DNA of 20,000 nt from Craspedostauros australis (taxonomy: Eukaryota). The position numbers and the translations under genes are program-made. The first letter of the stretch is position 1. Every line of letters begins with the position of its first letter. Where the stretch lies: the NCBI GenBank assembly GCA_030167865.1, contig JALAGF010005593.1, positions 46,500-66,499 on the forward strand, written 5' to 3'. Shown piece after piece: positions 2,030 through 20,000 of this stretch. The notes below the pieces were generated by a model, which was not told where the DNA came from, made no database searches, and worked only from the letters and a program-made list of their open reading frames with translations.

Positions 2030-2858
2030 CGTTGTGTGGTGTTGTCTTGCTTCGTGTTGTTTGGTATTCTACATACAGTCCGCAGTACTTCTGTTGGATG
2101 TTTCTTCCTTGCCTCCCTTCTGATTCTTGGTTGAACAAGGGTATCAATGCTGTTGGTTCTGTTGGTTCTGTTGGTTCTGTTGATTCTGTTGGTGTCACTC
2201 CTCGTGCTGGCACGATCTTCTGATCTTGTTGTCCCAGAATGATGTTTGAGGAAGTGTTGGCGTGTTGTTGGAGGGAAACCCTGGGTGTTGTTTCCCCTTG
2301 CGTTGGGTTGTCGTTTTTTTGCCTCTCTTGGTTTCGGCGCGTTGTTTTGGTGGTTTTGCTTTTGTTGCCCGCAGTATCGCGTGGTTTGTGGGCGGTGTTG
2401 TGTGTGTTGGCGTGTTGGTTCTGACCTGCTTTTGTCGTGTTTCGATTGTTGTGTGCGTCTGGGTATCTCGCGTTGCACCGTGTTGTTCCACACGATCCTC
2501 GTGTTGTTTGCGCGCTTTTTCGAAGAAGCTCGTTTTTTCCCTCCACCTCGCGACGACGACTCAGATGACTAACTTTTTCGTTTGGTCGTGGTGCTCGTAC
2601 TTCTTTTCACAGTTTATTATTTATAATAGGTCCATGTACTGGTATTGGATCTCAGACTGGCCTGATTTTTCGCCAGAGATGGCGATGATGTGTCGTTTCG
2701 CCAAAACAGAACGTGCCGCGCGCGATGAGTGACGGAAGAGGCAACCACACAATCCACGATCTTCATCGAACGGAGGCCTCCACCGGCAGTACCATTCCGT
2801 ACTCGCAGCCTGGATCCATCCGCAACTACCCTCTTGAATCTCTACTGCACACACGATT
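2030..2858. promoter_or_regulatory. Divergent promoter / 5'UTR interval between RMI1 and the HAD-like gene
   Basis: Head-to-head genes. About 2030-2530 is strongly G/T-rich on + (A/C-rich on the RMI1 sense strand), and the skew relaxes after about 2600. Specific elements not identified. Confidence 0.5.
2150..2193. repeat. 9-bp tandem repeat (CTGTTGGTT) x~5
   Basis: ctgttggtt ctgttggtt ctgttggtt ctgttgatt ctgttggt read directly; about 120 bp upstream of the RMI1 ATG. Confidence 0.9.
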
Positions 2859-2867
2859 ATGTATACC

Positions 2868-4112
2868 ATGCAATACAGGATTGAGCAGTCGCTGTTGCGG
2901 ACGGCAACAAGAAGGTTTTCGAATGCAGGCAGGACTGCAACGCAAAGACGGCATGGTGGACAGTACGAGGGCAAGTACACATGCGGCGGCTCCGGCGTCC
3001 GTCTTTCCTCAATGCGTTGGGCAGCCTCTCCGAGATCTGCGTCGAAGCGTTGCATCGGGGGAGGGAGGTACAGCAGGATGATGGACATGGGCGGGAGTCC
3101 GTCGGCCGCCACCGACAAGTCCAACACATTCCGTCTCAACAAGGGCAACAAGAACAACAAGCTCAAGGCTGTGGCCTTTGATTTCAGGGTGCTGACCACC
3201 TCGTGGAAGGACGAAGAGACGCAGGGACAAGGGAAGGAGCAGCAGCAGTCGCATGGGAACACTGGCAATCCAAGTGGAACCAGCAATGAGAGCAACGCCA
3301 CGTTGATAACATCAGCATCCATTAAACCGGATGCTGGCATGGTGAACAGCATCGCGTCCCTTCTCAATGTACAGATTGGAAGCCAAGATCCGACGAGCTA
3401 CAACCAAAGAAGCGAAGAGGTCAGCATCAGCAACATTGCGAATACCATCGAGACAGCAAACACACCATCCAAGACAGCCACCGCCACCAGCTCGGCATCG
3501 TCAGCTTCGCCATTGAACCAAGACATCCGCGCCAAGTACGCATCCAAGTTGAAGGGCGGCCTGGCGGGCATCGAACTGGCCAAGTCGCAGGTGGAGGAAA
3601 CGGTGCAGCGTGGTGACGCGGCCGGTCACATGGCAGCGCGCAAGATCGTCGCAGGAACCGCGGCATCGTCATCCACGCCCAAGTGGATGGCACTGTCGGG
3701 AACGGGCAAGCTGCTGGGGTACTTGAGCAACCGATCCATTCACATTGCGCTGTTACCTGGTGATCCGACGTCCGATCAGGTTGATCCGCAGATGCATTAC
3801 TTGAGCAAGCAGATGAAGGACATCGTCATCGATCTGGTGCTGGATGCGGAACAATCCGCGTCACAGACCGTCACGTCCTTGGAAGGGAAGCTACCGAAGG
3901 ACGTTGAGATGAGCCGCGTCATGGTGGTCAGCGATCGCGATGACTACCTGCGCGCGGCGAGAGACGCTGGCATGATCACATGTCGATTGCGCAAGCCTAA
4001 CTCGAGACGTGGCAATATCACGACGCATTATGACGTGGAAGACGTGCCACAAATCCAGGAGGTCATCGATGAGATTGCTGGCATCTCCTTCAACGCAGTG
4101 CTAAATCGGTAA
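2868..4112 (+). CDS. HAD-superfamily-like protein with degenerate catalytic motifs, probable mitochondrial presequence
   Basis: Single ORF; ATG at 2859 or at 2868 (accATG context). KLKAVAFDFRVLT resembles HAD motif I and RVMVVSDRDDYLRAARDAGMITCRL resembles motif IV plus the C-terminal strand. N-terminus is Arg/Ser/Thr-rich and acid-poor (SLLRTATRRFS). Confidence 0.7.
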   Translation: MQYRIEQSLLRTATRRFSNAGRTATQRRHGGQYEGKYTCGGSGVRLSSMRWAASPRSASKRCIGGGRYSRMMDMGGSPSAATDKSNTFRLNKGNKNNKLKAVAFDFRVLTTSWKDEETQGQGKEQQQSHGNTGNPSGTSNESNATLITSASIKPDAGMVNSIASLLNVQIGSQDPTSYNQRSEEVSISNIANTIETANTPSKTATATSSASSASPLNQDIRAKYASKLKGGLAGIELAKSQVEETVQRGDAAGHMAARKIVAGTAASSSTPKWMALSGTGKLLGYLSNRSIHIALLPGDPTSDQVDPQMHYLSKQMKDIVIDLVLDAEQSASQTVTSLEGKLPKDVEMSRVMVVSDRDDYLRAARDAGMITCRLRKPNSRRGNITTHYDVEDVPQIQEVIDEIAGISFNAVLNR

Positions 4113-4279: not shown

Positions 4280-5476
4280 TTACTTTTCGTCCATCACCCC
4301 CGAATGTTTTTGCCACCACCTAGTGGAGCACATTTCATGGATGCGACTTGCCGCACGTTGAAAGGCAAACTCAAGCTCGACCACGCTTGCCAGTGCACCG
4401 ATCGGCGCACCACCCTTCGTAGTTGCCACATCCATCCATTGCAGATCTTCATCGTCTGCAGCATCAGCATCGTCCAATCCTGTTTCGGCGCTTCCGAACG
4501 CTTGGAACAGCTTGGTCGGATCCAACGCCGTCGCACCGTCTTTTCTCATCGAGATGTCCGCATCATCCAAGCTGATCATCAGGGCGCATCTCGATTCGTA
4601 CAGTTCATCAATCAACGTGATGAATCGCCTCGCCTCGTTGTGTCGTTCCAACGTCAACGGGATGGGGATATCGGAGATGTGGACGCAAGAGAATTCTCTT
4701 CCAATCGCACGGTAGTCGTTGGCACCCAACTCGTGCTTCGTGCACAGATCATCAAATGTCATTTCGATCATGTTCAGTGATCTGTGGACGATCGGGATGG
4801 TGAGCGCTCGGTTCTGACCGATCGACAGTTCCATCGACGTGGGTTGAATCTGCGTGCTGTTGTTGGCGTTGGCGCTGGCGCATGCGTTTGTGCCTGAATG
4901 GTGAAGCAATGCTTCTACCACCGGGGCCGTGTCTTCCGTTGGCTCCGACATGAAGAACGATTGTGGCAAGTCGACCGTCGCTCTTGGTCCTGACTTTCCA
5001 TGCGGTGCTTCGACAGTGTTGCCCTCATCCGTGATCATGCGATAATCCACATCCGATCCCATCGAATGCACGATGCAATGCCGTTGCAGTAGATCAATGA
5101 ATGGCAGGAAGTAGTTACGATTCAACCCGCCTTCGTACAAATCCTGCGGTGGACGGTTGGACGTCGTCACCACCACGACGCCCTGTTGGAACAGAGTGGA
5201 AAAGAATTGGGACAGAATCATGGCATCCGCAATATCCGTCACCTGGAATTCATCGAGGCAGAGGATCGAAAGCTCTGACGCCACCTGCGATGCCACTCGA
5301 TAGATTGGATTGCTCTGTTGCCGAGTATCGATCTGAAAGCTGCGACCATGCTGCTCCAAATCTTGCTGTTTCAATCGATGGATGCGCTGGTGGATGCTGG
5401 AGAGGAAATTGTGGAAGTGGATGCGTTGGATGCGAGAATTCGCAGGAGCTTCGGAAGTGCTTTTCGATTGATCTTG

Positions 5477-5507
<31 letters not shown>

Positions 5508-6298
5508 TGCGAGACCAGCGTATCATAAAACAAATCCATCAGCATGCTCTTGCCTGTTCCGACATCGCCATGAATATACAATCCACGAGGTGTTTGCAAG
5601 GCTGGCGGTGTGGGTGGTGACGGAAGCTGAGATTGATCCCTCTGTTTCGCTTGTTCTCCTGCCATGTTGTCACTGCCATTGGCAAAGCTGTCTGCGTCTA
5701 CCTCATTGCTCGCAATGAGATCATCTTGCAGTTTGTGATACTGCAAGAGCTGGTCGGCATACTCCACCAGAGGCAAGTTGTCGTACCCCTGCAAGGCTCG
5801 CTGCAGTCGGCTCAATCGCTTGGCCACCCGCATCTGTGCATCATCTCGACGGATCGTCCCCATGGACACCATCTTCTGCATCCGATCGATCACCAATTCG
5901 GTTATTGATGATGATGCTGATGAAGAAGCGGATGCGGATGGTGGCAGATGCCGCGTCTGCTGAGCTTCTATGAGTAATTGACTCGCATTTGCATTGGATG
6001 CTCGCGACGTGCTGCCAATGCGGATGAAACTTGAAAGCAATCGACGTGAGCTCGACCGTGCAGAACAGAGCGCGTGACATGGCATGGTCGTCGGCACTGA
6101 ATGATGTGTGCTGAAACGGGCATGATGGCCTGCGCCATCCCTACCACATCCTCGCTGTGATAATTGAGAACTTCCACGCTTCTGAACGTGCCCCTCACCA
6201 CCGATGGCAGCTCCGATTCCACGCCCTGCCGAAGAGACGATACGCCGCTGTTCGTGCTGCCTCAGCCTCAAAGCGTGAATGGCAATCGAAGACAACAT
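4280..6298 (-). CDS. AFG1: AFG1/LACE1 (ZapE-like) AAA+ ATPase, probably mitochondrial
   Basis: GLYIHGDVGTGKSMLMDLFY (Walker A), RIHFHNF, LCLDEFQVTDIADAMIL (Walker B), TTSNRPPQDLYEGGLNR, FDDLC..LGANDY, NEARRFITLIDELYE and FAFQRAASRIHEM are family signatures. The first true ATG is at 6298; the track start at 6325 is TTG. Confidence 0.93.
5474..5509 (-). repeat. CAG/CAA trinucleotide repeat encoding Q12 inside AFG1
   Basis: (ttg)4(ctg)8 on +; translates as LVS-Q12-DQ just after the Walker A helix. Confidence 0.9.
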
Positions 6299-7838
6299 TG
6301 TTACTTTGTATAACAGCAGTCCCAATGCGCAAGGATTGTCCTTTCGTCAGCTACAGATTACTGTCGTCGCCATCGTCGTCGTCATCGTCGTGGTCTCCGC
6401 GTTCGCCGTGGTGGCGATCCTCGATGCTCTTGTGTTCGTTGACGCCAGCTCATGTTCGTTCATCAAGTTCACATTTGGCGATTTGGATTCGGTTCTCGAC
6501 ATCATCGGAATCTTGGAATGACCACATCGACTGCTTCACCTATTTGTGGTTTCGCTAGTGGAAGACAGTGTTGGGAACCCTCCACATCCCATCATTCCTT
6601 CTTGGAATCGTGTGCATGGGTACAGAGGAGAGCATAGTAGAGAGTGTGTCTCTCCTCTAATCGAAGTGCAGCCTCATCACCGCAGCATCTTGGGCAGAGA
6701 CAGAGTAATGCGAAAGGACATGCGGGTGGATGTTGCTGACATTCAAATCAATCCAATCGTGTCAAAACACGGCCGTGAACTTTGCCTGGTTTGTGACGCC
6801 ATTGCCTTGGGTCCTGAAGAGTAACATCCGCCGGCCCGGTGCATCTGTATCCATCATGCCTCATTTAAGATCGTGGATTCCATGTAGTAACCCTTTTGGG
6901 ATCTGGCCAGAGATCCATGGCTGAGAGCGGAGTAGCACGAAGCAGATGATGAACGTGTGGCGCAACGCGCTCCTTGGGTCACGCAAAGTAAAATAGTGAT
7001 TTGGTTGGTTTAGCTCGTAGTCCCAACAACAAGTATTGTATAATATGTACCAGTGCGCCACCGAGTATTCTAACTCTTCCTGTGCGGTATCTTGCGATAC
7101 AATCGTCCTTGCGTGAAGAGTACACCTGTGACGACTCATCTCCTCTACTCTACTCTGGTTCGTACTCTACTCGTATTGATCTCATGGCTTCTCATCTTGG
7201 ATCTTGCGTGGTGCTTCGAAGGTGATCACGAGATGCGACACGAACCAGTATCGACCGTCTGGCCTTCGCTCCCCGCGTGTTTTATTCGTGGAAAGTGTCA
7301 CAAACCTCATCGAAGCACGATTTGAATTTGGAGATTAACCGTCGCGGCTCCGAGAAAACCGAATCATTTGTCCTCTTCCTTTTCCTTGTGTTCTTTGGTC
7401 GATTTTGTTGACGGCGACGATGCGCACCCTCGTGATCGATGCTCGTCAACCATCAGAACTCCTTTTGTTGGCAGTGTTCGTGGCCGCCCGCCTCCACGTT
7501 TGCTCTGTTCGACGAAGGTGAGGAGATTTCGGGTACGACCGTCGAGGCAGCCACGCCGACTGTGCGGCCAGGTTCGGTTGAGCAGACCCACAGTCCAGCA
7601 ACACTCGTTTGAACACAACGCTCGTCTGATCGCAGCAACATCGCCACCGCTACGATTGCGATTCCAAGTACGATCCATTCCAGAACTACTCATTACTCAT
7701 ATTATATTACTTGCTATTGCACTTGGCACACTCTCGGCGATCCATACACCAAAGATATCACAACATCACACTAAGAGACCACAAGGAGCCACAACTCATC
7801 ACAGAGCGCTACTGCCACACTGGTACAAATAGGCGACG

Positions 7839-10322
7839 ATGGGAAATCACGCCTCGCTCGACATTCAGTTCGATGCGCCTGAAGACCAAGCAAGCGTCAA
7901 CGGAGGCGTCAACGGAGGCGATGCTGCGTCCGCCGATGCAAACACGCACGTAGCAGGCAATCGGTTGAGGGGGAATGTGGTCCTGGGGGTGATGCGCCGC
8001 AAGGGCATCGCGCCGTCGAGCATCACCGTGGCATTCAACGGCAAGGAGCACACCATCGTGGGAACCCCTCGCAACACATTCCGCGATGAGCACATCTTTG
8101 TGCAGGGCACCTGCAAGCTGTCAACAGAACACCTCATCACTCATGATCGCAAGTTCCGCAGCGTTATCCCCCGTGGCGTGCATCGCATTCCCTTCTGCTT
8201 CGAGCTGCCCAGTTCTGTGCCAACCACCATCAAGTTCCCTGCCAAGTCGCGCGGCGTCAATGCTCGCATCGAATACGGTGTCAACGCGACGTACGGAGAT
8301 GACAATGCCACCATGCTACAGCACAACAAGGCCTTGTTTGCCACCAAAACGGTCGACATCCAGGCGCTGCCTGTCGCTCTGCAGGAGCGTTACCAGGCAC
8401 AGCACCCGCAGGTCATCCACCCAACCACCCTCGAGTTGAAATCCTTCGGGATGATCCACCACGGTCGCATCACCTATGCGATCAACGTTGCCAAGCCGGT
8501 GGTGGCGATTGGGGACGCCCTCATGCTCGATCTCGCAATCTGGAAGGTTGCCAAGGTGCAGCTGGAGCGTGTCGAAGTCAAGATCAGCCAGTACGTTACG
8601 TACAAGGTCACCAACGACTTCACCAAGGGCTTGGGCGAAGCAAAGGAGCACGAGCGTCAGAAGAAGAACACCATTCTGCACTGGAAGGCCATCGACCCCT
8701 ACCTTCTAGGCGACCTCGCTGTGCGTGACGAATCTATCCTCACGAACCCCACCGATGTCAACGAAACCAAGATGCAGATCGAGCAGCAGATGCTGCACGA
8801 TCTGGCCAGCCATCAGAACAAGCTCCAGATCCCCATCCCGACCGACTCTGTCCACCTGTTGGATTCCTACGAAGGTCTGCTCATGAGCATCTCCCATTCC
8901 CTAAAGGTAACCATCCATACCAAGAACGCCATGCTCAAAAATCCATCCTGCCGCATTCCAATCGAGATTGGCAAGCCATTGAGCTCGGATCAGCTGGAAT
9001 CAACACCGCCGGCGGCATCGGCTCCAGAGCTGGCACCGGAAGCAGAAGTGGAAACCACACCCAATCCACCGCCATCGGCGCCGATCGCGACGGCATTGTC
9101 TGCGGAGGACACGAACGAGGCTTTGCAGGAAGCTGCTGCTGTGGCGGCCGCAGAGCAGGCGCCGAGCCGCATACCGTCCTTCCTGCGGGGCAGCAGCAGC
9201 ACTCCATCCGCTCCTGTTGACACCGTTCCGATGGCTGCGGCAGTTGTCATTGATGAGAACAATGATATCGTGTCTCCGGAAGCACCGACGGCTCCGGAAG
9301 ATGAATCGACAGTTGTTCTGGATGCCAACGCTGTCCAGGTTGAGGGCCCTGCGGATGGGCTGCTTGGGAACGTCAATGTCCGCATGAATGACAGAAGCGC
9401 GCCTCAACCAGCAACTGATGACAATGATGACGAAGATGATAATCGCATGTTCTTTGGCGCGCGATACGTCATCCCCAATGTACGGGCGACGCCAGGTTCG
9501 CCTGCCTTGTCCGATGACAACATCTCCGTCTTGACGCATGATATTCCAGAAACTCCACAGCGGAGGCCCATCACAGGCTCTGCTCGTTCTTCCTCCTCGT
9601 CGTCATCATCATCATCACCGTCGTCATCATCATCCTCTGCTTCGTCTCGGTCGCTGAACGCTCCTCCGGTTGTGCAAAGGATGGGTTCAATGTCTTCGTC
9701 CTTCAGCTCCATCCCGCCACCGGCCATGTACACCTCTCCGCAGCGAAGAGGGGCGAACGAGGAGGAGCATGAGCAACAACCCGAAGACCCGCAGCAATCC
9801 GAGCAGCCTGAGCTGGAGTCCACCGAGCACACGCAGGAGGACACTCACAGGGACAACCAAGAAAGCAATACACCAACGTTATCATCGCTTCTCGGACAGT
9901 TAGCTGCAGCGTCAGCTGCCTCGCCGGACCAATCCACGCTGCTGCAGGTTTTCCGAGGTAAGATGGAGGACCCCGGGTGGCCAAAGTTTGTGGCGAGCCT
10001 CTCGATTTCGGATTTTCAAACCATCTTGAACGCTTTCCCCATGGGCGATCGCATCGGTGCTGCCGAAGTGGTGGCGCAGCAGTTCATTCGCATGCACGAG
10101 AAGGCAACCGATGGCGACGCCAGTGGCTTGTCTCCATTCACATGCCTCCATTGCGCCGCCGCGATGCAATGCATGTCGGAGTATTGCAGAACGGACATGT
10201 TGCAGACCTTGCTGCCCTACTGCTCCGATATCAAGCAGAATCACATCATCATCCGGGAAGGCCTGTCCGATTGGGAACGCACAATCACCAACGGCATGTT
10301 TGAGGAAGTGTTGGCACAGTAG
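7839..10322 (+). CDS. Alpha-arrestin (ARRDC-like) protein: arrestin_N + arrestin_C, disordered P[S/T]AP-containing linker, helical C-terminal domain
   Basis: 827-aa ORF. AGNRLRGNVVL, SITVAFNGKEHT, IPRGVHRIPFCFELPSSVPTT, ARIEYGVNA and DSYEGLLMSISHSLKVTIH..CRIPIEIG follow the arrestin N/C beta-sandwich patterns. Starts MGNHAS. Confidence 0.8.
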   Translation: MGNHASLDIQFDAPEDQASVNGGVNGGDAASADANTHVAGNRLRGNVVLGVMRRKGIAPSSITVAFNGKEHTIVGTPRNTFRDEHIFVQGTCKLSTEHLITHDRKFRSVIPRGVHRIPFCFELPSSVPTTIKFPAKSRGVNARIEYGVNATYGDDNATMLQHNKALFATKTVDIQALPVALQERYQAQHPQVIHPTTLELKSFGMIHHGRITYAINVAKPVVAIGDALMLDLAIWKVAKVQLERVEVKISQYVTYKVTNDFTKGLGEAKEHERQKKNTILHWKAIDPYLLGDLAVRDESILTNPTDVNETKMQIEQQMLHDLASHQNKLQIPIPTDSVHLLDSYEGLLMSISHSLKVTIHTKNAMLKNPSCRIPIEIGKPLSSDQLESTPPAASAPELAPEAEVETTPNPPPSAPIATALSAEDTNEALQEAAAVAAAEQAPSRIPSFLRGSSSTPSAPVDTVPMAAAVVIDENNDIVSPEAPTAPEDESTVVLDANAVQVEGPADGLLGNVNVRMNDRSAPQPATDDNDDEDDNRMFFGARYVIPNVRATPGSPALSDDNISVLTHDIPETPQRRPITGSARSSSSSSSSSSPSSSSSSASSRSLNAPPVVQRMGSMSSSFSSIPPPAMYTSPQRRGANEEEHEQQPEDPQQSEQPELESTEHTQEDTHRDNQESNTPTLSSLLGQLAAASAASPDQSTLLQVFRGKMEDPGWPKFVASLSISDFQTILNAFPMGDRIGAAEVVAQQFIRMHEKATDGDASGLSPFTCLHCAAAMQCMSEYCRTDMLQTLLPYCSDIKQNHIIIREGLSDWERTITNGMFEEVLAQ

Positions 10323-11426
10323 GTGTTGGTTGGAAGACAACTTGTTTGTGTGCGATGCACGGAGGAGCATGTTAATCGTCTCCCAAGAGCGCAGTAACCA
10401 CACGAATACAGCACAATAGGCACTTTTCTTTTCCTCTCTGTCTGACTTGCTACCCGGAGGTACAACACATCCCTCAACAGCCACGCATCATGCCTTGGCA
10501 GATTCGGTAGATGGCAACTAGTAAGACTCTAGTTTCACGGAATATGCGTGAATGAGTGAAATCGATGGGAGATGTGAATGGCCTTGCTTGTTTGATCCAG
10601 TCTCATCGTAGCCGCGCACTGTTCTGCTCCAATGTGAACTCGGTCATAGCGCTCCCGCAAACAACGCGAAGCTGTGTCGTGCAGAACTTCATCAATCATC
10701 GCGAAAGGAACATGGTCCGTCATGATCTCGTTTGGCACGATACGACTACGACTACGAGTACGACTGCAAGCACGATGATGCGGTTGGAGTTGTCGGCTAG
10801 GTCGTGTCACGACAAGCCTACGCAATAGTTATTGCATCTCTTGTCCTTGTGTAGTCTTCACACAGTTAGAGGATGGACATGTGGAGGTACAAATGCTGGC
10901 ATTGTGTCCAGCATATGCATTCTCCATGATGCTCTCCAGTTTGGTTTTGATTGCAGATGGAAATATTGTAATAAGACTAGAATGTATTATAGAATATGTT
11001 ATAATAGAGCATGTGAGACAGATCGATAGCACAGAGGAGAGATTGCTCTCCGTAGTTGCAAACACATCCACGGTGGAGCTCGATCGCGCTGTGAGCCACG
11101 ATGCACGAGGAGGGTTGGATGAATGTGGACACATCGCATCAAGACGCAACCACATGATTCCCAAAGGTGAGTGTTCGATCGTGTCGCAGTCATCGCTCGT
11201 GAATGACCGCCTTGTGAGGTTTTGAGAACGCGTATAAAGTGTACTGGCCCGTACGTGAAGAAGGAAGAAATTGGTGTGCAAAGCAGAAAACAGCGCGACA
11301 ACATGCCACCACACGCAACGATGCGAGAAAAGAGGCACAGCGGATTTGTATCCACGCTGCGAATACAGACAGAGTCCAACGAGAACGCGAAGCGAAACCA
11401 AAAGGGCGACACACAGGCAAGGCAAG

Positions 11427-11488
11427 GAGGTATCCGCAGCAGCAAGAGGTATCCGCAGCGGCAAGAGGTATCCGCAGCGGCAAGAGGT
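11427..11488. repeat. 19-bp minisatellite (GAGGTATCCGCAGCRGCAA) x3.3
   Basis: Units at 11427, 11446 and 11465, partial at 11484; one substitution; no spacers. Confidence 0.92.
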
Positions 11489-11737
11489 GAGGCCAAAGGA
11501 AACCAAACAAAGCCACACACCACACCACGAAGCAAAGCAAAGCAAAGCAGGGCGAAGAAACAGAGCCACCGACTCCACTCTCTTGGATTCATCTTGTCCC
11601 TCCCCTGTGAATCCAGGTGCAGATCGATACTCGAAACCCAACGATCCAAACATCACAAACATCACCACAACCAACAGTACAACCAACAGCACAACCAACG
11701 GCACAAGCATCCGAATACTCACTCGTAGGGCAACATC

Positions 11738-13393
11738 ATGGTGTCCTCCAAAGATGAGCGCGATGAAGTAGAGTATGAGCACGACGCGGAGAGCAGCAGC
11801 GAAGAAGAGGAGGACGAGTCGTCGGGAGAGGAAGAATCCGAGGAGGAGTCATCCGGAGAAGAGGAGTCGTCGGAAGAAGAGGAATCGTCCGAAGAGGAAG
11901 AATCATCTGAGGAAGAAGAATCCGACGACGATGATGATGACGACGATGACGATGATGATGATGAGGGTGACGAGGAAGAGACCTACGCTGATCAAACGTA
12001 CAACACCGGCTACACGGATAACTACCAGGATCAGCCATCCGCGGCAGGCTACGACTTCAACGGCGATCAGAACAGCCAGTACGACAGCCAGTATGACAGC
12101 CAGTATGACAGCCAGTACGACGGCCAGTCCATGGGAGGATCCTACTACAGCAACGAGCCTCCACCGCACGGCGGCGTCCGTGGCAACGCCGGATCTCCCA
12201 TGGATCCGGCCTTCGAGGACGAGGAGGAGGCCTTCATCGATGAGCAGGACGACGAGCAGGACGACAAGGAGTACGAGAGATCCAGAAGGCGAAAGTTCAT
12301 CTTCGTCATCTGCTGTTGCTGCTGCTGCCTGGTCCTCATCCTGCTGGGAGTCGCGCTCGGTATCATGTTCTCCGGGGACGACGATGACAAGGAGCCAGGC
12401 CCCACTCCCGTGCCTGTCGAGCCGTCACCAACGGACCAGCCAACGAGGATGCCCATCATCTTCCCGCCTGTTGACTTGGGCGACACTGGCGATCTGGACA
12501 TCGGGGACGGACCCTTCACCAGACGGCCCAATCCGCCGACAGTTCCACCCAGCAAGAAGCCAACAAGGAAGCCCACTCCGGCTCCGACCATCTCTCCGAC
12601 TGTGTCTATGCTGCCTACCATCAGCATCCCGCCCACCTTCATCCTCGAAGCAGAGCGTGACACCATGCTACAGAACGGGTTCCTCGCCAACGACACAGCG
12701 GGCAGCAAAGAGATCTTGCAGATGCGTCACAGCCTGTCCGATGAAACGCAGGAGATGTACACCCTCATCCAGTTCGAGCTCTCCGATCTCCCTCGCCCCG
12801 TTGATCTGCTGCGTCCTCCGGTCACCAAGAAGGCAACGCTCATCCTCGCCCACGAGAAGTCCTTGGCATCCGGAAACACTCCCACCATCCAAGTCGCCAA
12901 GCATCCGCCAACACGCCTCAACATCGACTACCTCTTCTACTTCATCTACCCCGTCAAGCATGCCCTCGGCAAGAGCATCATGGGAGGCACCACAATTGTC
13001 AATGCGGATGACGACACCATCGAGATCGACATCACCTCCTTGGTCTTCGCCTACCAGCCGCCAGAGGCCCTTTACGAAGAAGAGGAAGACCCGACGAACA
13101 TGGTGCTCGTGGTCCACTCAACCACGAACACTCCGGGAGTGTTCTTCTACAGCAAGGAGCACTCGACCGAACCGGCGCCACATATCAAGTTCGAATTTGA
13201 TCCGCTCGCTCAACCCGGAGTCGCGAATGGCGACACTGATGTCGACACCAACGGCAACGTCTTCGACAACGGTGGTACCGTGGCTGACACCGCAGCGCCA
13301 ACCGCAACTCCGGGATCGGCACAACCGAGCGGCACCGTTGGCGGTGACACCACTGAACCATCGGAGACTCCATCGGTCGGGTTCAAGTTTTAG
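11738..13393 (+). CDS. Type II single-pass membrane protein: acidic N-tail, hexa-Cys + TM, Pro/Thr stalk, DNRLRE/CBM96-like ectodomain
   Basis: 551-aa ORF with strongly GC3-biased codons and no signal peptide. RSRRRK-FIFVICCCCCCLVLILLGVALGIMF is a positive-inside signal anchor; PT/PS stalk follows. LEAERDTMLQNG...YTLIQFELSDLP...KKATLIL...IEIDITSLV...FFYSKE...PHIKFEF resembles the DNRLRE/CBM96 pattern from memory. The CDS is confident; the domain call is less so. Confidence 0.75.
   Translation: MVSSKDERDEVEYEHDAESSSEEEEDESSGEEESEEESSGEEESSEEEESSEEEESSEEEESDDDDDDDDDDDDDEGDEEETYADQTYNTGYTDNYQDQPSAAGYDFNGDQNSQYDSQYDSQYDSQYDGQSMGGSYYSNEPPPHGGVRGNAGSPMDPAFEDEEEAFIDEQDDEQDDKEYERSRRRKFIFVICCCCCCLVLILLGVALGIMFSGDDDDKEPGPTPVPVEPSPTDQPTRMPIIFPPVDLGDTGDLDIGDGPFTRRPNPPTVPPSKKPTRKPTPAPTISPTVSMLPTISIPPTFILEAERDTMLQNGFLANDTAGSKEILQMRHSLSDETQEMYTLIQFELSDLPRPVDLLRPPVTKKATLILAHEKSLASGNTPTIQVAKHPPTRLNIDYLFYFIYPVKHALGKSIMGGTTIVNADDDTIEIDITSLVFAYQPPEALYEEEEDPTNMVLVVHSTTNTPGVFFYSKEHSTEPAPHIKFEFDPLAQPGVANGDTDVDTNGNVFDNGGTVADTAAPTATPGSAQPSGTVGGDTTEPSETPSVGFKF
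12072..12128 (+). repeat. 12-bp coding tandem repeat (ACAGCCAGTAYG) x~4.7 encoding (SQYD)4
   Basis: Read directly; protein NSQYDSQYDSQYDSQYDGQS. Confidence 0.9.
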
Positions 13394-13807: not shown

Positions 13808-16800
13808 CTAGTATGAATAAGGTGACCCAACAGCCTGCCGTATTTCATCCATGTGCTGCTGCACGGTTTGGTCGGCCCGATGCCGCCTCCTCTTCATATC
13901 CTCTTCCAGTGTCTCCAAATGCTCCATCTTGACTTGGTTCGGCACCGCAGCATGCTGGATCGTCTTCAGGATCGCACGATACCCGTAGTTGTCCACGGAC
14001 TTCATTTCGCCGAACAAACGCATCACGCGCTGCACGAGGGCTGCGCCGTTCCTGGCCAGCTCATCATCGCCCTCAGGTAGCTTCGCCCCCAGCAACGCGC
14101 ATTCGTTGGCGTACGCGTTCAGCACAATGTTTTGTGGTACCTTGTTCGATCCGCGGAACTTGCTGGACATCTCCTGCAGGATCTGGTGCGCGCGATCGCC
14201 CGATCCGACTTCACCTGATCGTGCCCAGCACGTCAGCAGCGCCGTGTAACAGTACACGTTCGTTGGGAATCGCATCTCCGATACCCACCAAGCAAGCAGG
14301 GCTTCCGCATCTTCGGCGGGGACGTCGGAGTTGGAAAAAGAAGACAGCACGCCCCTCAGGATGAATTCGTTCGGTGTCAGCATCGCGTGCCGTCCGCTCG
14401 ATTTCCAATCCTCCACCAATCCCAGCATGAGCTCCTTCGCGCTGGCGGCATCGCCAATGCGGGAGTACGCATGAATCACGTCACTGTACGCTCGAACGTT
14501 GGGCTTCAAATCCGGATCATCGCTATACCGGATGCTCTCCAACAGCTGTCGCGCTTGCTTCGGCGCATCGGGGTACAATTTCAAATCTGCATTCGCCCAG
14601 CACGAAATAGCGACCGTGTACGAAATGGTATTGGGCTTGCACCTCAGGCCCTCCTTGGCGTGCATGTCGTGCATGGATTGGAGGATGGATTGGACCTTCT
14701 CCACGTTGTCGGGATGCTTGGAATCGCGCCAGGCAGACATCAACGTTGTGAAGAGGATGGTGGTCGGATGCACGGATCGATCCTGGACCATCCAATCGAA
14801 CACCTCCTGTGCCTTTTCTGGCCGTTCGGCACGCGCCCATGCCTTCACGACGGCCGTGTAGCATGCCGTGCTTAGTATTGCATGCCTCTCTGTGCCCTCA
14901 GTCAAACTTTCGGATCGGGCGATGTAGTGCTGAAGTTTGGCCTGTGCCCGTTCGGCCGGTGCCGAATCTCGGGGCGTCGAGAGGTTGGCCCAGATCGAGA
15001 GCAGCTGCGCCACGTGCTGGCTGGAGATCTGCGTGGACGATGACTTCGTCTCCACGCTCTCCATCAATCTCTCCGCCTCCACCGCTGTGTTAACCTTGAG
15101 TTTCGGATGCCGCGCCAACGCTCTGAGCACTGTGGTGAGCGTGCGGGCGGATGGCTCTGCATCGTGGTTGCCGTTCGCAAAATCCGTCAACATCTCGTCG
15201 AACAGTCCCCGCGCTCTCTCGGGCTGATTGGAACGCGCCATGGCCGCCATGACCGAGTTGTACACAATCGCGTTGGGTCTGAGATTGGGTGACCCAGTGG
15301 CTTCATATGCGCGCTGCAGCTTGCGAAATACCTCGAGTGCTCGGTCCGAGGCACGTCGGCTGCTGTTGGCATCGGGCTCCACGCGTGGATACTGGGTAGA
15401 ACGATCGTTCTGTTGCACACCAGCACAGTACTTGGACCAGCAATCGATGACGATGCTGTAGCTGCCGCAGTCCGGGCCTTGATCGATCTGCCCATCCTGA
15501 AACAGGGTCTCGAAGTCCTCGAGCAGCTGCTGCGCTTCTTCTGCCGCTTTCCACATCGCATCGTGACTCGAGTAGGATTGTTTGGCGTAAGACAGCAGAA
15601 TCGCATTGAGGAACCTGGTCCTGGATGCTCCATCATGGTTGGTGCCGTCGAGGGTCTCGTCCATCTGCCGCAGCAATGGCTGAATTCGTTCTTTCTGTCC
15701 GCGCTTTGCGAAATGATGTACCACCGGTGTGAACCAGGCTTGCGATGGACGCAGTCGATCTCCGAACTTGTCGGGATGCTGGAATCGCAATGACTTCGCC
15801 CGTTCGATCCATGCAATGGCTCGATCCGGATCATCGACGGCGAGCCACACATGAATCACCTCCGCCACAAGGAAGGAGTCGGGATAAGCCTTAGCAGCAA
15901 CAGATCTCCCACTCTCGTTGTCGCCATCTTCCGCGCTACGGATAAGCTCTTCCATGGCCTCATCCACTTGCTCTGCGCTGGTAGCGTCCAAGTAGGAGGC
16001 GTGGCGCATGGCATTGAAAATCATGGTGTAGGCTTGGACGCTGGGCGTTGTGATCAGTGCATATTTCGTTCGCACATTCTCCAACAGCTGAACAGGCGAT
16101 GGGATGCCAGGAGGCCGGTCTTGCTCCCGCTGCTTTTTGGTCTGATTCGTCCAGATCTGCCAGTGATTGATGATGCCACCCAAGTGCTTGGTCGGAACGA
16201 TGCCTCTATCCGTTGGTACATCTGATGGTGATGGTGATGCTGCTGATGCCGTGGCGGTGACTTGCTTCTCCTCTGCCATGCGATCGAGAATCCCGAATGC
16301 CCGCTGCAAGGCAGTGTCTTTGTACCCGCCGTTGTACCAGAATGAGAGACATTCCTTCGCCGAGTTCCAATCATCTGAACTGAACTCTCCTTTTGGAATC
16401 GACATCAACTCGTCCGTCATCGTTTGCCAGCTTTTGCGATACGAGTTGTCTCTGTAATTCCTGTCGTTGTACCACGCCAAGTCTCTCGCCCTATGCTTCG
16501 ATAGTTGGTTCTGGCGGCTTCCTTGATGTCGTTGATTTCGACCTTGTCGTGGATGTTGGTTGCGATGATTCTGATTTTGTCTGCGGTTTGGATGAGGGCT
16601 GTACGAGCTCGTCTCTTCATGGCGCGTGCTGCGACGAGCTGCAGTCGTAATGTTTGTGCTGGATCCATGTGAAGAGCTGGCGAAGCAACGCACCGGAGAA
16701 CGCGAAATCCCTTGCCTCCTGCTGAGCCGTGCTGTCGCCATGGTGATGTGCTGCGGCAGAGCTGGGCGGAGCATGTTTGGGCATTCACCTGATTGATGGA

Positions 16801-17020
16801 ACTGAGCAGCTTTCCATGTGAACATCGATGCCGATGGTGGTGTTGCTGTTGGCATTCGTTCTTGGACGAAGGTGGACGTGGAGGCTGCTTGTGCCATTCT
16901 GGCAGAGCCCGTGCCGGCAGCGCCCCGTGCCTTGACGGCAAGCCTCGAAGCTACCGTTCTCATCGTTTGCAAAGTAGCACTCCTTCTCATCATCAGGTTC
17001 ATCATCGTTGTGGACGACAT
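13808..17020 (-). CDS. Pentatricopeptide repeat (PPR) protein, probably mitochondrial
   Basis: Many roughly 35-40 aa helical repeats (PNAIVYNSVMAAMARS, TACYTAVVKAWARA, PTTILFTTLMSAWRDS, PNTISYTVAISCWANA, PNVRAYSDVIHAYSRI, TNVYCYTALLTCWARS). Likely start MSSTTMMNLMMRRSATL at 17020, followed by an Arg/Ser/Ala-rich acid-poor presequence. The ORF is open up to 17329. Confidence 0.88.
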   Translation of the reverse strand: MSSTTMMNLMMRRSATLQTMRTVASRLAVKARGAAGTGSARMAQAASTSTFVQERMPTATPPSASMFTWKAAQFHQSGECPNMLRPALPQHITMATARLSRRQGISRSPVRCFASSSHGSSTNITTAARRSTRHEETSSYSPHPNRRQNQNHRNQHPRQGRNQRHQGSRQNQLSKHRARDLAWYNDRNYRDNSYRKSWQTMTDELMSIPKGEFSSDDWNSAKECLSFWYNGGYKDTALQRAFGILDRMAEEKQVTATASAASPSPSDVPTDRGIVPTKHLGGIINHWQIWTNQTKKQREQDRPPGIPSPVQLLENVRTKYALITTPSVQAYTMIFNAMRHASYLDATSAEQVDEAMEELIRSAEDGDNESGRSVAAKAYPDSFLVAEVIHVWLAVDDPDRAIAWIERAKSLRFQHPDKFGDRLRPSQAWFTPVVHHFAKRGQKERIQPLLRQMDETLDGTNHDGASRTRFLNAILLSYAKQSYSSHDAMWKAAEEAQQLLEDFETLFQDGQIDQGPDCGSYSIVIDCWSKYCAGVQQNDRSTQYPRVEPDANSSRRASDRALEVFRKLQRAYEATGSPNLRPNAIVYNSVMAAMARSNQPERARGLFDEMLTDFANGNHDAEPSARTLTTVLRALARHPKLKVNTAVEAERLMESVETKSSSTQISSQHVAQLLSIWANLSTPRDSAPAERAQAKLQHYIARSESLTEGTERHAILSTACYTAVVKAWARAERPEKAQEVFDWMVQDRSVHPTTILFTTLMSAWRDSKHPDNVEKVQSILQSMHDMHAKEGLRCKPNTISYTVAISCWANADLKLYPDAPKQARQLLESIRYSDDPDLKPNVRAYSDVIHAYSRIGDAASAKELMLGLVEDWKSSGRHAMLTPNEFILRGVLSSFSNSDVPAEDAEALLAWWVSEMRFPTNVYCYTALLTCWARSGEVGSGDRAHQILQEMSSKFRGSNKVPQNIVLNAYANECALLGAKLPEGDDELARNGAALVQRVMRLFGEMKSVDNYGYRAILKTIQHAAVPNQVKMEHLETLEEDMKRRRHRADQTVQQHMDEIRQAVGSPYSY

Positions 17021-17570
17021 GTTACGGCACGAGTACTCGTGAGGACTCCATGCGCTTGGAATGAAGGTGAGCGAAGGAGACGGTGTCAGCAGCTCCGAGG
17101 GAGGCACGTGGCTTGGATGGCTGCGTGAACGGTTGTTGGCCTCTTGTTTGATTTGGTGTTGAGCTTCAAACGTGCATGACGCCATCATGTTCATACGTGT
17201 CAAGGAAGAGGATGATGGCCGACTCAGCCGACCGTCGATAGATGTTGACCCATACGATTTCAACCAGGTCGTGAATGACGTCATGCTGCTTCCACCAATC
17301 AAAGGGAGCCATGGCGCGTGAATCGTCATCAGCCAAAAAAGAAGGAACGAGTGCTTCGTTTCTCACGCGTTCTCACCACACATCAACGCGTCTCGATCCG
17401 CACCGCCCAAAACCAAAAAGAAAATCTTCATGCATCGCCACAGAACAACAGCCACCGCAAACAACACGAGCACACGAGGAGACGCAAGCCTGTGGACAAG
17501 TCGCAATTCGTCTTCACATCACCACAACAATCGATCACGTCAACGCCCAGCTTCCTCCCATCCATCCACC
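17021..17570. promoter_or_regulatory. Divergent promoter interval shared by the PPR and NDPK genes
   Basis: Head-to-head starts about 550 bp apart; A/C-rich leader on + from about 17400 to the NDPK ATG. Confidence 0.5.
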
Positions 17571-18880: not shown

Positions 18881-20000
18881 TCACTCTCTTCTCTTCGCCT
18901 TTGATTTGCCAGATTGATCCCTTGCATCGGCTCTCCGTACGCGAGCTTGTTTCTCATGGACCACGTCAATGCCATCAACCGGTTGCCACAGGTTCACGAC
19001 GCAAGCCCAGAATTCCATCGTCACCGCAAGCAGACATGCGACGAGGCCAGAGATCACGCCAAGGCGACTGTATCGACGCAACTTATCGAGCAAAGGCTTC
19101 GCTCCGCTACGTTCCTCCTTCTCGCTGGATATTGTATCGTAGACTCGCAATGTATCGGCTGCGACTTGCTCCCATGAGTACATGGACTTGATGCGTTCGT
19201 GTGTTTCGAAGGGATCCACCTTGGTTGCATCTGATGACTGCCTCGAGGCTGCCTCCATGATTTGCTGCACCAACGCATCCACGTTGGGTTTCGCCATCAG
19301 AATCATATCATCCTCCAGCACCTCCGGAATGCCACCGACATCTGTCGACACGATGAGCAACCCGCAGCATGCAGCTTCCAAGATTGCAATACAGAATGAC
19401 TCCGTCAGAGAACAGTTGAGGAAGATGTGACCCTGGCAAAGCACGTCACGGACTTGCTCGTGCGGGACGCTGCCCAGGAACTGCACGCGATCTTCCAGCT
19501 GTTCCTGCTCGACCATTTCCTGCAGATTGAGGAACTTGTTCCCGTCTCCACCCACGAGGAAATCGATCTGTGGTAATGCCTGGCAGACCTTGGGGATGAT
19601 ACCAACCAGCAGGTCCACGCCTTTGCGATACACCAGGCGAGACACCACGACGATGCGTATTCTGGAATTTGGTTGTGCCAATATGGAATCCAAAGAGGAG
19701 GAGACCGATTGGACACGGCGTTAGTTTCCTTTAATTTGATTTGATTCAGATTGGCACGGCGTGAACAAGATACGAGCAGTTCGAGACAGCTTACATACGC
19801 GGCGCGATGCTAGTAGCTACAACGCATCGACATCGCTCTGATACACACGCTCCGCAAGAAAAGCGCGCCGTCTCTTTTCTCTTGACCTACCTTTCCTTCG
19901 GCCGTTTGGATGGATCTGGCGTGAACTTGGATGGGTCGATTGCATTGGGCACCACATGGACACGTTGCGGATCGAGGTTGGCCCGTAGGATCAAATTGGT
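18881..20000 (-). CDS. PIGA: Phosphatidylinositol N-acetylglucosaminyltransferase subunit A (GPI anchor biosynthesis, GT4); 5' partial; exons >20000-19891 and 19661-18881
   Basis: TNLILRANLDPQRVHVVPNAIDPSKFTPDPSKRPKER spliced to IRIVVVSRLVYRKGVDLL; GHIFLNCSLTESFCIAILEAACCGLLIVSTDVGGIPEVL; MYSWEQVA; C-terminal hydrophobic helix. These are PIG-A/Gpi3 signatures. Confidence 0.95.
19662..19890 (-). other. GT-AG spliceosomal intron (229 bp, phase 2) in PIGA
   Basis: Donor AG|gtaggt at 19890, branch ctaac at 19724-19720, first downstream AG (ttccag) ends at 19662; restores the frame. Confidence 0.9.

Follow-up and report, generated by a model that had tools for sequence, protein, structure and literature searches.

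A diatom alpha-arrestin-type protein with a myristoylation consensus, P[ST]AP motifs and an additional helical domain, a candidate ESCRT-I recruiter

Gene, arrestin fold and C-terminal domain

We analysed a 20,000-nucleotide window of genomic DNA from Craspedostauros australis, in which an intronless and complete coding sequence (P0001) encodes 827 amino acids (aa) plus a stop codon. An in-frame TAG lies two codons 5' of the start ATG, so the ATG at 7839 is the first of the open frame. The nearest orthologue, a transcriptome-derived protein from Staurosira (P0002), begins with the identical MGNHASLDI, in agreement with this start, and the two proteins are collinear from Met1 through to the C terminus. 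On these two grounds, the start codon given in a preliminary description of the locus stands; the gene runs past the end given there (9296), as the frame holds 341 further codons. A 1007-nt contig from one run, whose kind we guessed, matches 9431-10436 identically and collinearly, with no joints, and is silent on the 5' end and on transcription. The main parts of the gene are as follows.

7830..7832, plus strand: in-frame TAG stop, two codons 5' of the start ATG
7839..10322, plus strand: coding sequence, intronless and complete
7839..7859, plus strand: MGNHASL, putative N-myristoylation consensus (Gly2, Asn3, Ser6)
7941..8360, plus strand: Arrestin_N domain (aa 35-174), Pfam PF00339
8463..8975, plus strand: Arrestin_C domain (aa 209-379), Pfam PF02752
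9003..9875, plus strand: disordered linker rich in Pro, Ser, Ala and Glu (aa 389-679), from composition and AlphaFold pLDDT
9879..10316, plus strand: conserved all-helical C-terminal domain, DUF4476-like (aa 681-826)

Both arrestin domains pass their Pfam cut-offs, Arrestin_N (E 5e-10) with 40 bits against 24.9 and Arrestin_C (E 1.7e-11) with 45 bits against 27.7. In the AlphaFold model, aa 36-388 form a two-lobed beta-sandwich with pLDDT mostly >90, the Arrestin_N region likewise being mostly >90, and Arrestin_C carries an inserted helix at aa 304-324. A Foldseek search with this model gave 261 PDB matches at E<=1e-3; among those listed (the best ~40 of the 261), all are arrestin, TXNIP or Vps26 chains, and the top match is C. 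elegans ARRD-6 (7usy_J; E 5.5e-14, TM 0.56 on the target). When the PDB was searched by phmmer with the protein itself, the sole match, to WDR70 (E 0.38), was one of low complexity. A profile of the family ranked ARRD-6 (5.6e-13), TXNIP (2.3e-11) and ARRDC3 (1.5e-10) ahead of beta-arrestin-1 (3e-8), and this ranking against the PDB appears to place the family nearer the ARRDC/TXNIP (alpha) branch than the visual/beta one.

The family, gathered by exhaustive search of cluster representatives, comprises 265 of them. Word-index searches returned only the Staurosira orthologue, and a word-index search with the C-terminal domain returned nothing. The three named members are all diatoms (Staurosira, Nitzschia and Thalassiosira), and both arrestin domains are present in 47 of the 48 aligned members. 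The two domain matches and the identity of the named relatives bear out the earlier assignment to an alpha-arrestin-type protein of a stramenopile. That the gene product is a diatom alpha-arrestin-type trafficking adaptor is a claim that we make jointly with the myristoylation and Vps23 proposals set out below, and as a whole we give it about an even chance.

The preliminary description was right about the arrestin fold but missed the conserved domain at the C terminus, which 136 of 151 family sequences share and which AlphaFold models as nine helices with pLDDT >90. DUF4476 (PF14771) matches nine of 48 family members at E<=0.01 (best E 5e-7); with E 0.089 and 13.5 bits, the window protein stays below the cut-off of 22.5. 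In the ESM Atlas, a cluster drawn mostly from Bacillariophyta combines Arrestin_N, Arrestin_C and DUF4476 (34% of members), and querying the ESM Atlas with the C-terminal domain gave scores of <=0.78 and no more than a weak pointer to DUF4476. A Foldseek search of the PDB with this domain returned nothing at E<=1e-3, and the best VIA-align match was to designed helical repeats, at a Z of 10.6 that lies under the meaningful level for helical repeats. Judged from the model, the fold appears to be a helical repeat of a generic kind, for which the PDB offers no particular relative, from which newness of the fold does not follow. Passages of two papers describe the function of DUF4476 as still undescribed (PMC7441323, PMC9881849).

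The linker and its P[ST]AP motifs

In the AlphaFold model, pLDDT falls below 50 at aa 401-468, 478-495 and 505-674 of the linker. Because all three P[ST]AP motifs are in such segments, they are predicted to be accessible. Column conservation was read from a 40-sequence linker alignment with ~30% overall identity, and the features of the linker are listed below.

9015..9026, plus strand: ASAP variant (aa 393-396), by sequence match
9072..9083, plus strand: PSAP motif 1 (aa 412-415), overlapping a family-conserved P-I-A-T block; P[ST]AP in 3/40 at this column
9204..9215, plus strand: PSAP motif 2 (aa 456-459), lineage-specific; P[ST]AP in 1/40 at this column
9225..9245, plus strand: conserved linker block VPMAAAV (aa 463-469); [IV]P[MI]xxA[VI] recurs in the alignment
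9285..9296, plus strand: PTAP motif 3 (aa 483-486), at a family-conserved site; P[ST]AP in 15/40 at this column and x[ST]AP in 6 more
9297..9335, plus strand: acidic-hydrophobic block EDESTVVLDANAV (aa 487-499), right after PTAP; aligns with DESLL, TESMI, EAILI and similar
9393..9404, plus strand: RSAP variant (aa 519-522), by sequence match
9588..9638, plus strand: poly-serine tract (aa 584-600); TRF, period 3 at 9603-9634
9714..9731, plus strand: PPPAMY (aa 626), not a PPxY motif, by sequence match

The PSAP, PSAP and PTAP motifs thus lie where they had been reported, together with the ASAP and RSAP variants, and the sequence closest to PPxY is PPPAMY. Alpha-arrestin tails typically, though not always, carry PPxY for ligases of the NEDD4/Rsp5 type. 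Neither PPxY nor LPxY occurs in the window protein, and its tail has no canonical acidic dileucine, clathrin box or YPxL. The Staurosira orthologue also has a serine run. Tandem duplication was considered as the source of the three motifs and rejected: no repeat extends across 9000-9300, and no tandem DNA repeat lies beneath the motifs.

The motifs could be functionless by-products of a disordered linker rich in Pro, Ser and Ala, with the MG start tolerated and unacylated, a reading that we judge very unlikely. The tail from aa 386 to 680 (295 aa) has the composition for it, with 37 Pro, 46 Ser and 36 Ala. However, shuffles of this tail contain a mean of 0.13 P[ST]AP motifs against the three observed, a number reached in none of 20,000 shuffles, and shuffles of the whole protein contain a mean of 0.08 (P = 5e-5 for three). 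Eleven permuted control words occur zero or one time each in the same tail. The family counts, made in 122 linkers (19,095 aa) and in the remaining 50,556 aa with shuffles providing the expectation, point the same way. The linkers hold 51 P[ST]AP motifs against 3.3 expected (~15-fold), and the other 50,556 aa hold one. This enrichment stands without the window protein, with 48 motifs observed once its three are removed against the 3.3 expected for all 122 linkers. Ten of the 11 permuted words occur zero to six times in the family, and PA[ST]P, which has the same composition, occurs twice; because of this difference of 51 against 2, we regard the enrichment as specific to P[ST]AP and not as a general proline effect. 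The eleventh word, [ST]APP, is present 21 times, a count that includes any copies lying within P[ST]APP. In both the tail shuffles and the family counts, P[ST]AP is more frequent than composition predicts.

Conservation of the motifs is uneven. P[ST]AP is absent from 85 of the 122 linkers, and all three motifs are missing from the closest orthologue, which has SNED in the conserved PTAP column and PPTY instead. Motif 2 is unique to the window protein in its column and motif 1 nearly so, and these two features, like the orthologue, favour the by-product reading; conservation of the PTAP column speaks against it. Of the motif conservation that had been proposed for testing, the PTAP site holds up, but the two PSAP motifs are specific to the lineage, and the threefold multivalency suggested for the protein is not conserved across the family. 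The suggestion that the adaptor may act independently of NEDD4 fares similarly. Because the Staurosira protein carries PPTY in place of P[ST]AP, such independence could be at most a property of this lineage.

What is conserved at the PTAP site exceeds the four-residue motif. The first proline varies (ASAP, ATAP and QSAP), being replaced in six of the 21 sequences with [ST]AP in this column, and the conserved [ST]AP is always trailed by the acidic-hydrophobic block. Because the first proline varies and the block always follows, the whole block may be a motif for another ligand or for an intramolecular contact. The protein would then be an ordinary alpha-arrestin in which '[ST]AP, acidic, hydrophobic' is no ESCRT-I motif but the site of another partner: an SH3-like or other proline-recognition module, or else the arrestin lobes or the C-terminal domain of the same protein, with the linker serving as a regulatory tail. 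Down-regulation of cargo would proceed through ubiquitin ligases or other routes. The C-tail of beta-arrestins is docked, and a weak strand at aa 495-497 of the AlphaFold model, just past PTAP, recalls it; moreover, PPxY is present in ten of the 122 family linkers, including that of the nearest orthologue. The exact P[ST]AP is nevertheless the enriched word, the block shows no confident docking in the full-length model (pLDDT ~50 or lower), and links between arrestins and ESCRT-I through the same class of motif are established in animals and fungi. We consider this alternative unlikely, though the most probable of the rivals to ESCRT-I recruitment through P[ST]AP.

The N terminus as a putative acylation site

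The N terminus fits G-{EDRKHPFYW}-x2-[STAGCN]-{P}, a PROSITE-type pattern for N-myristoylation. An MG start occurs in 46 of 76 apparently full-length homologues, defined by a complete N-lobe, and the full pattern is matched by 29 of the 76. Asn3 is found in 26 of the 46 MG homologues and Ser6 in 21. Gly2 is absent from the other 30, only one of which has an internal MG hinting at a miscalled start. In eukaryotic proteomes, Gly2 occurs in under a tenth of proteins, and the over-representation of MG in this family (46/76) argues against an N terminus that is tolerated and unacylated. Gly2 and Ser6 are both kept in the nearest orthologue. The conservation of these residues that the preliminary description proposed to test is found, in the family as a strong excess of MG.

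The lipid anchor that had been proposed is upheld as a consensus for putative acylation, but a second membrane signal is missing from the first 34 residues. A search of aa 1-34 for a basic patch or a cysteine found no Lys or Arg, no Cys and six Asp or Glu, and this acidic N terminus favours the by-product reading. In the family, counting the window protein, four of 47 MG sequences have a Cys at residues 3-12, and 40 of the 47 carry no net positive charge over their first 20 residues. Myristate by itself has only weak membrane affinity. MG and P[ST]AP are uncoupled in the family, the motif being present in 11 of 44 MG proteins compared with five of 25 non-MG proteins.

Proposed function and comparison with known systems

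We propose that the protein is a Gly2-myristoylated arrestin adaptor that links cargo to ESCRT-I through P[ST]AP and has a partner-binding C-terminal domain, and we think it about equally probable that this proposal is right or wrong. We class it as a candidate ESCRT-I-recruiting alpha-arrestin similar in kind to ARRDC1 and PalF/Rim8, to which a myristoylation consensus and a further domain are added; the interpretation in the preliminary description is partly supported. Against the proposal stand the absence of P[ST]AP from the Staurosira orthologue and from most family linkers, the lack of coupling between MG and P[ST]AP, the 30 full-length homologues without Gly2, the longer conserved block at the PTAP site and the missing second membrane signal. 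N-myristoyltransferase would acylate Gly2 co-translationally, and the fatty acid, three residues before beta-strand 1 of the N-lobe, would bias the arrestin domain toward the membrane. Because neither a basic patch nor a cysteine is nearby, membrane binding is probably reversible, needing cargo or lipid contacts besides. The exposed P[ST]AP motifs, chiefly PTAP at aa 483, would bind the UEV domain of the ESCRT-I subunit Vps23, and cargo on the arrestin lobes would pass to the ESCRT pathway, by analogy with ARRDC1 and PalF/Rim8. The C-terminal domain would bind some partner, and the outcome could be multivesicular-body sorting, plasma-membrane signalling or outward budding.

A published passage credits model diatoms with a complete ESCRT set; our literature search on Vps23 in diatoms found no direct study. 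In a passage of PMC3346829, yeast Vps23 is described as reading PSDP-type motifs at a site unlike the human P[S/T]AP site. The literature search also found no paper on alpha-arrestins in diatoms, on myristoylated arrestin-domain proteins or on a DUF4476-like domain attached to an arrestin. Taken from sequence, the combination of an arrestin fold, a Gly2 signal, ESCRT-type motifs and a helical end domain appears to be previously undescribed.

Outward budding could be the main function, with a myristoylated arrestin at the plasma membrane recruiting ESCRT-I through late-domain motifs to release extracellular vesicles from diatoms, in the manner of Gag or of ARRDC1-driven microvesicles (ARMMs). 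HIV-1 Gag likewise pairs myristate with PTAP, and in addition to its three P[ST]AP motifs the window protein has two [ST]AP variants. ARRDC1 buds microvesicles through its PSAP, as stated in a section of PMC9105457. This version is improbable in our view: multivalency is not conserved, a second membrane signal is lacking, fungal arrestins with the same motif class serve signalling and sorting rather than budding, and our literature search found no paper tying diatom arrestins to vesicles. A broader form of the idea is speculative to the same degree. Diatoms, and perhaps other ochrophytes, might have a dedicated family of fatty-acylated arrestins as endogenous 'late-domain' proteins, in which the N-lobe sits at the plasma membrane, the PTAP block pulls in ESCRT-I, the DUF4476-like domain selects cargo or self-associates, and vesicles bud outward; P[ST]AP and PPxY would then replace one another in different lineages as alternative ESCRT routes. 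If true, endogenous late-domain arrestins would amount to an ARMM- or Gag-like pathway that arose outside opisthokonts.

Only animals (ARRDC1) and fungi (PalF/Rim8) are known to couple arrestins to ESCRT-I through motifs of the P[ST]AP type. The presence of this motif class at a conserved position of the linker in a large and unannotated family of diatoms would suggest that the link is much older than opisthokonts or was invented repeatedly. The family adds two features, a DUF4476-like domain and, on an arrestin fold, a conserved signal at Gly2. In transformable diatoms, the G2A and PTAP-to-AAAA mutations and removal of the C-terminal domain provide simple handles, bearing on vesicle release and on how membrane proteins, nutrient transporters among them, are turned over in globally important algae.

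Among solved structures, C. elegans ARRD-6 (7usy chain J) is the closest to the window protein both by profile and by fold, at 14% identity and over the arrestin lobes only. HIV-1 Gag combines an N-terminal MGxxxS myristoylation signal with a PTAP that recruits TSG101. It differs in having an unrelated fold, in self-assembling and in carrying a basic patch that provides the second membrane signal, where the N terminus of the window protein is acidic. The recruitment of TSG101 by Gag is mentioned in a passage of PMC9105457. MGRN1, which belongs to the RING ligases rather than the arrestins, is reported to combine N-myristoylation with a TSG101-binding PSAP. Part of one article calls it a membrane-tethered E3 (PMC13161197).

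Human ARRDC1, like the window protein, has the arrestin N and C fold followed by a disordered tail with PSAP; unlike it, ARRDC1 has no DUF4476-like C-terminal domain. PPxY motifs are present in ARRDC1, and it is not known to have an N-terminal Gly2 signal. Solved alpha-arrestins share just 12-14% identity with the window protein, and the likeness to ARRDC1 does not imply orthology. The PSAP of ARRDC1 binds the UEV domain of TSG101, according to a section of PMC9105457.

PalF/Rim8 are arrestins of the fungal pH pathway that recruit the ESCRT-I subunit Vps23 to the plasma membrane through their tails. They are ubiquitylation-dependent and paired with a 7-TM sensor (PalH/Rim21), a kind of partner not known for the window protein, and they have neither the myristoylation consensus nor the helical C-terminal domain. 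As described in part of PMC3346829, PalF binds the Vps23 UEV domain, and its tail bears SSAP at 700, ASAP at 727 and PSAP at 745. This SxP cluster resembles the ASAP, PSAP, PSAP, PTAP and RSAP series in the linker of the window protein.

Gene model and domain architecture

We found that the alpha-arrestin-type protein of the window is encoded by a single long open frame at 7839–10322 on the forward strand, which specifies 827 residues beginning MGNHASL. The frame is open only from 7833, and an in-frame TAG at 7830–7832 closes it upstream, making the ATG at 7839 the earliest possible start. The closest relative, a 757-residue protein (P0002) from the diatom transcriptome MMETSP1352 (Staurosira), is 42% identical and collinear from Met1 to the C terminus, and the two proteins open with the same nine residues, MGNHASLDI; this alignment supports both the intronless model and the start codon. 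Thus, of the span 7839–9296 proposed in the preliminary description, the start holds, as does the MGNHAS N terminus, but the end lies in mid-gene. A 1007-nt contig from one public run, the kind of which is a guess, is identical to and collinear with window positions 9431–10436 and stops 114 nt beyond the stop codon, and a 210-residue database fragment (P0003) is identical to residues 618–827. At 7894–7920, a 12-nt unit is repeated exactly in tandem (2.2 copies), giving a GVNGGVNGG stretch in the N-terminal loop. The surrounding genes are ordinary eukaryotic nuclear genes; no Pfam match was found for the ORFs at 2838–4112 (+), 10829–11848 (−) and 11729–13393 (+).

Table. Features of the arrestin gene and neighbouring long ORFs
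2–2068, −, RMI1 (N-terminal OB fold), neighbour
4280–6346, −, AFG1-like ATPase, neighbour
9072–9083, +, PSAP motif 1 (residue 412)
9204–9215, +, PSAP motif 2 (residue 456)
9285–9296, +, PTAP motif 3 (residue 483)
9879–10316, +, conserved nine-helix C-terminal domain, DUF4476-like, beyond the span first described
13808–17362, −, PPR-repeat protein, neighbour
18881–19720, −, GT1 glycosyltransferase, neighbour

As first proposed, the protein belongs to the arrestin clan and to its alpha branch. Arrestin_N (residues 35–174, 40 bits against a Pfam cut-off of 24.9) and Arrestin_C (residues 209–379, 45 bits against 27.7) were both matched, and a family sequence profile ranked ARRD-6, TXNIP and ARRDC3 above beta-arrestins. 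An AlphaFold model (48-sequence alignment, mean pLDDT 70.6, pTM 0.65) contains two confident arrestin lobes to about residue 388, a short strand at residues 5–11, right behind the MG, that joins the N-lobe, and a confident all-helical domain at residues 681–826. Foldseek with this model retrieved arrestin-clan structures, led by Caenorhabditis elegans alpha-arrestin ARRD-6 (7usy_J, E 5.5e-14). In the linker, pLDDT falls below 50 at residues 401–468, 478–495 and 505–674, within which all three P[ST]AP motifs lie, in disordered and accessible sequence. The model also predicts a 21-residue helix inserted in the Arrestin_C lobe (window 8748–8810, residues 304–324).

When 1.84 billion cluster representatives were searched exhaustively, 265 proteins reached E ≤ 1e-3, and 109 of these also passed E ≤ 1e-10. 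We projected the three regions of the window protein by phmmer onto a family set of 151, namely the window protein and the best 150 of the 265 hits (one being its own fragment). Arrestin_C was matched in 137 and the C-terminal domain in 136 of these 151, indicating that arrestin fold, linker and helical domain, in that order, are the rule in the family. Because the representatives, clustered at 50% identity, are still related to each other, counts refer to sequences and not to independent events. The named relatives are all diatoms (3/3): Staurosira, Nitzschia sp. Nitz4 (P0012) and Thalassiosira sp. AJA248-18 (P0085, annotated 'hypothetical protein'); of 30 representatives looked up by name, P0012 and P0085 carry an organism name and the other 28 come from metagenome or run assemblies, the Staurosira protein having been named in a separate homologue search.

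The C-terminal domain, modelled separately (pLDDT 84), has no specific solved relative in two structural searches: Foldseek gave no match at E ≤ 1e-3, and the best VIA-align matches are designed helical repeats (Z 10.6), a fold class in which the tool itself considers that score uninformative. The domain has a DUF4476-like sequence; DUF4476 scored below the cut-off against the window protein (E 0.089) and matched 9 of 48 homologues (best E 5e-7). An ESM Atlas cluster combining Arrestin_N, Arrestin_C and DUF4476 is mostly from Bacillariophyta. The function of DUF4476 is given as not known in the relevant parts of two papers (PMC7441323, PMC9881849), and our literature search found no paper assigning one.

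A conserved N-terminal glycine

The preliminary description read the N terminus as a myristoylation signal. We examined 76 homologues among the best 150 of 265 hits that start with Met and have at least 120 residues before the projected Arrestin_C start, leaving out the window protein and P0003. An MG start is present in 46 of the 76, with Asn3 in 26 and Ser6 in 21 of these 46, and the PROSITE-type myristoylation pattern G-{EDRKHPFYW}-x2-[STAGCN]-{P} fits 29 of the 76. Gly2 is absent from the other 30, only one of which has an internal MG hinting at a miscalled start. Judged from these N termini, Gly2 is conserved in the family, although neither Gly2 nor Ser6 is universal. Gly2 of the window protein would be myristoylated co-translationally. 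A lone myristate confers weak, reversible membrane binding. Residues 1–34 include six acidic residues and no Lys, Arg or Cys, and a Cys near the N terminus occurs in 4 of 47 MG sequences (window protein included).

P[ST]AP motifs in the linker

All three P[ST]AP motifs occur where they were first listed, as do the variants ASAP (residue 393), RSAP (residue 519) and PPPAMY (residue 626). PPxY, typical of alpha-arrestins but not obligatory, is absent from the window protein, as is LPxY. Although Ser (46), Pro (37) and Ala (36) abound in the tail (residues 386–680), composition-matched shuffles yielded a mean of 0.13 P[ST]AP, with 0 of 20,000 reaching three; whole-protein shuffles gave a mean of 0.08 (P = 5e-5). 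Of the eleven control words obtained by permuting the residues of the motif, none occurs more than once in the tail, and no tandem DNA repeat spans the motif region. Since scanning one protein for any known short motif offers many chances of success, we gave more weight to the family comparison.

We counted motifs in 122 sequences, drawn from the best 150 of 265 hits and including the window protein, in which both domains are present and flank a linker 20 residues or longer. These linkers hold 51 P[ST]AP copies (48 without the window protein) versus 3.3 expected from per-sequence shuffles, carried by 37 of the 122 proteins; beyond the linkers there is one copy in 50,556 residues. Ten of the eleven permuted words occur 0–6 times in the linkers; the eleventh, [ST]APP, occurs 21 times and would overlap any P[ST]APP. 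PPxY is found in 10 of the 122 linkers. P[ST]AP is carried by 11 of 44 MG and 5 of 25 non-MG proteins in the same best 150, and this lack of co-variation argues against a single coupled module.

We aligned 40 linkers with MAFFT (the window protein, P0002, P0004–P0039, P0067 and P0097, a selection made for readability). Three islands are conserved: P-I-A-T directly behind the arrestin fold; [IV]-P-M-x-x-A-V, which is VPMAAAV at 9225–9245 of the window; and P[ST]AP with a one- or two-residue spacer before Glu, then Ser/Ala and a hydrophobic triplet. The PTAP at residue 483 sits in the third island, in a column that is P[ST]AP in 15 of 40 and ASAP, ATAP or QSAP in six more. By contrast, motif 1 overlaps the P-I-A-T island, where P[ST]AP occurs in 3 of 40, and motif 2 is found in the window protein alone (1 of 40). 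P0002 has SNED in the PTAP column and no P[ST]AP anywhere. Together, the column counts and P0002 indicate that one motif is old and recurrent in the family, that the other two are recent in this lineage, and that the class is gained and lost among close relatives. P0002 instead carries PPTY at residue 527, which suggests that two ESCRT-linked motif classes may swap between lineages.

The PTAP-containing block might alternatively bind another ligand or make a contact within the protein, as its conservation extends beyond P[ST]AP itself; the sole strand modelled near it, at residues 495–497, is weak. Conserved islands other than P[ST]AP in the disordered linker, namely VPMAAAV, EDESTVVLDANAV (9297–9335) and THDIPETP (9534–9557, which the Staurosira orthologue also has), may represent additional binding motifs. 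A poly-serine tract (9588–9638, residues 584–600) has a counterpart serine run in P0002. By analogy with the hinge of yeast Rim8, described as a multisite phosphorylation region (PMC4472021, in part), it could be such a region.

A candidate ESCRT-I adaptor

Alpha-arrestin identity, the conserved Gly2 and the PTAP column favour the preliminary interpretation of a lipid-anchored ESCRT-I adaptor, but the recent origin of motifs 1 and 2 and the uncoupling of MG from P[ST]AP weaken it. Through its linker motifs, the protein would bring ESCRT-I to membrane cargo bound by its arrestin lobes. We consider the chances about even that the protein is a myristoylated alpha-arrestin adaptor recruiting ESCRT-I, with an extra C-terminal domain; vesicle budding is a speculative and improbable sub-case. 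Outside the arrestins, MGRN1 and HIV-1 Gag offer precedents for pairing myristate with P[ST]AP. The ESCRT set of Thalassiosira pseudonana and Phaeodactylum tricornutum is stated to be complete in an appendix to a comparative study (PMC4501334, Appendix 3). Our literature search found no papers on diatom alpha-arrestins or on myristoylated arrestin-domain proteins.

By sequence features, the window protein most resembles ARRDC1 and PalF/Rim8, arrestins with tail motifs for ESCRT-I. The PSAP of ARRDC1 binds the TSG101 UEV domain, according to a passage of PMC9105457. Passages of PMC3346829 report that Aspergillus PalF, whose tail contains SSAP, ASAP and PSAP, binds the UEV domain of Vps23, that yeast Rim8 uses an SxP motif, and that yeast Vps23 reads PSDP-type motifs at a site other than the human P[S/T]AP site. 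Unlike every arrestin with ESCRT-I tail motifs that we found described, the window protein carries a Gly2 consensus that is conserved, and it ends in a DUF4476-like helical domain.
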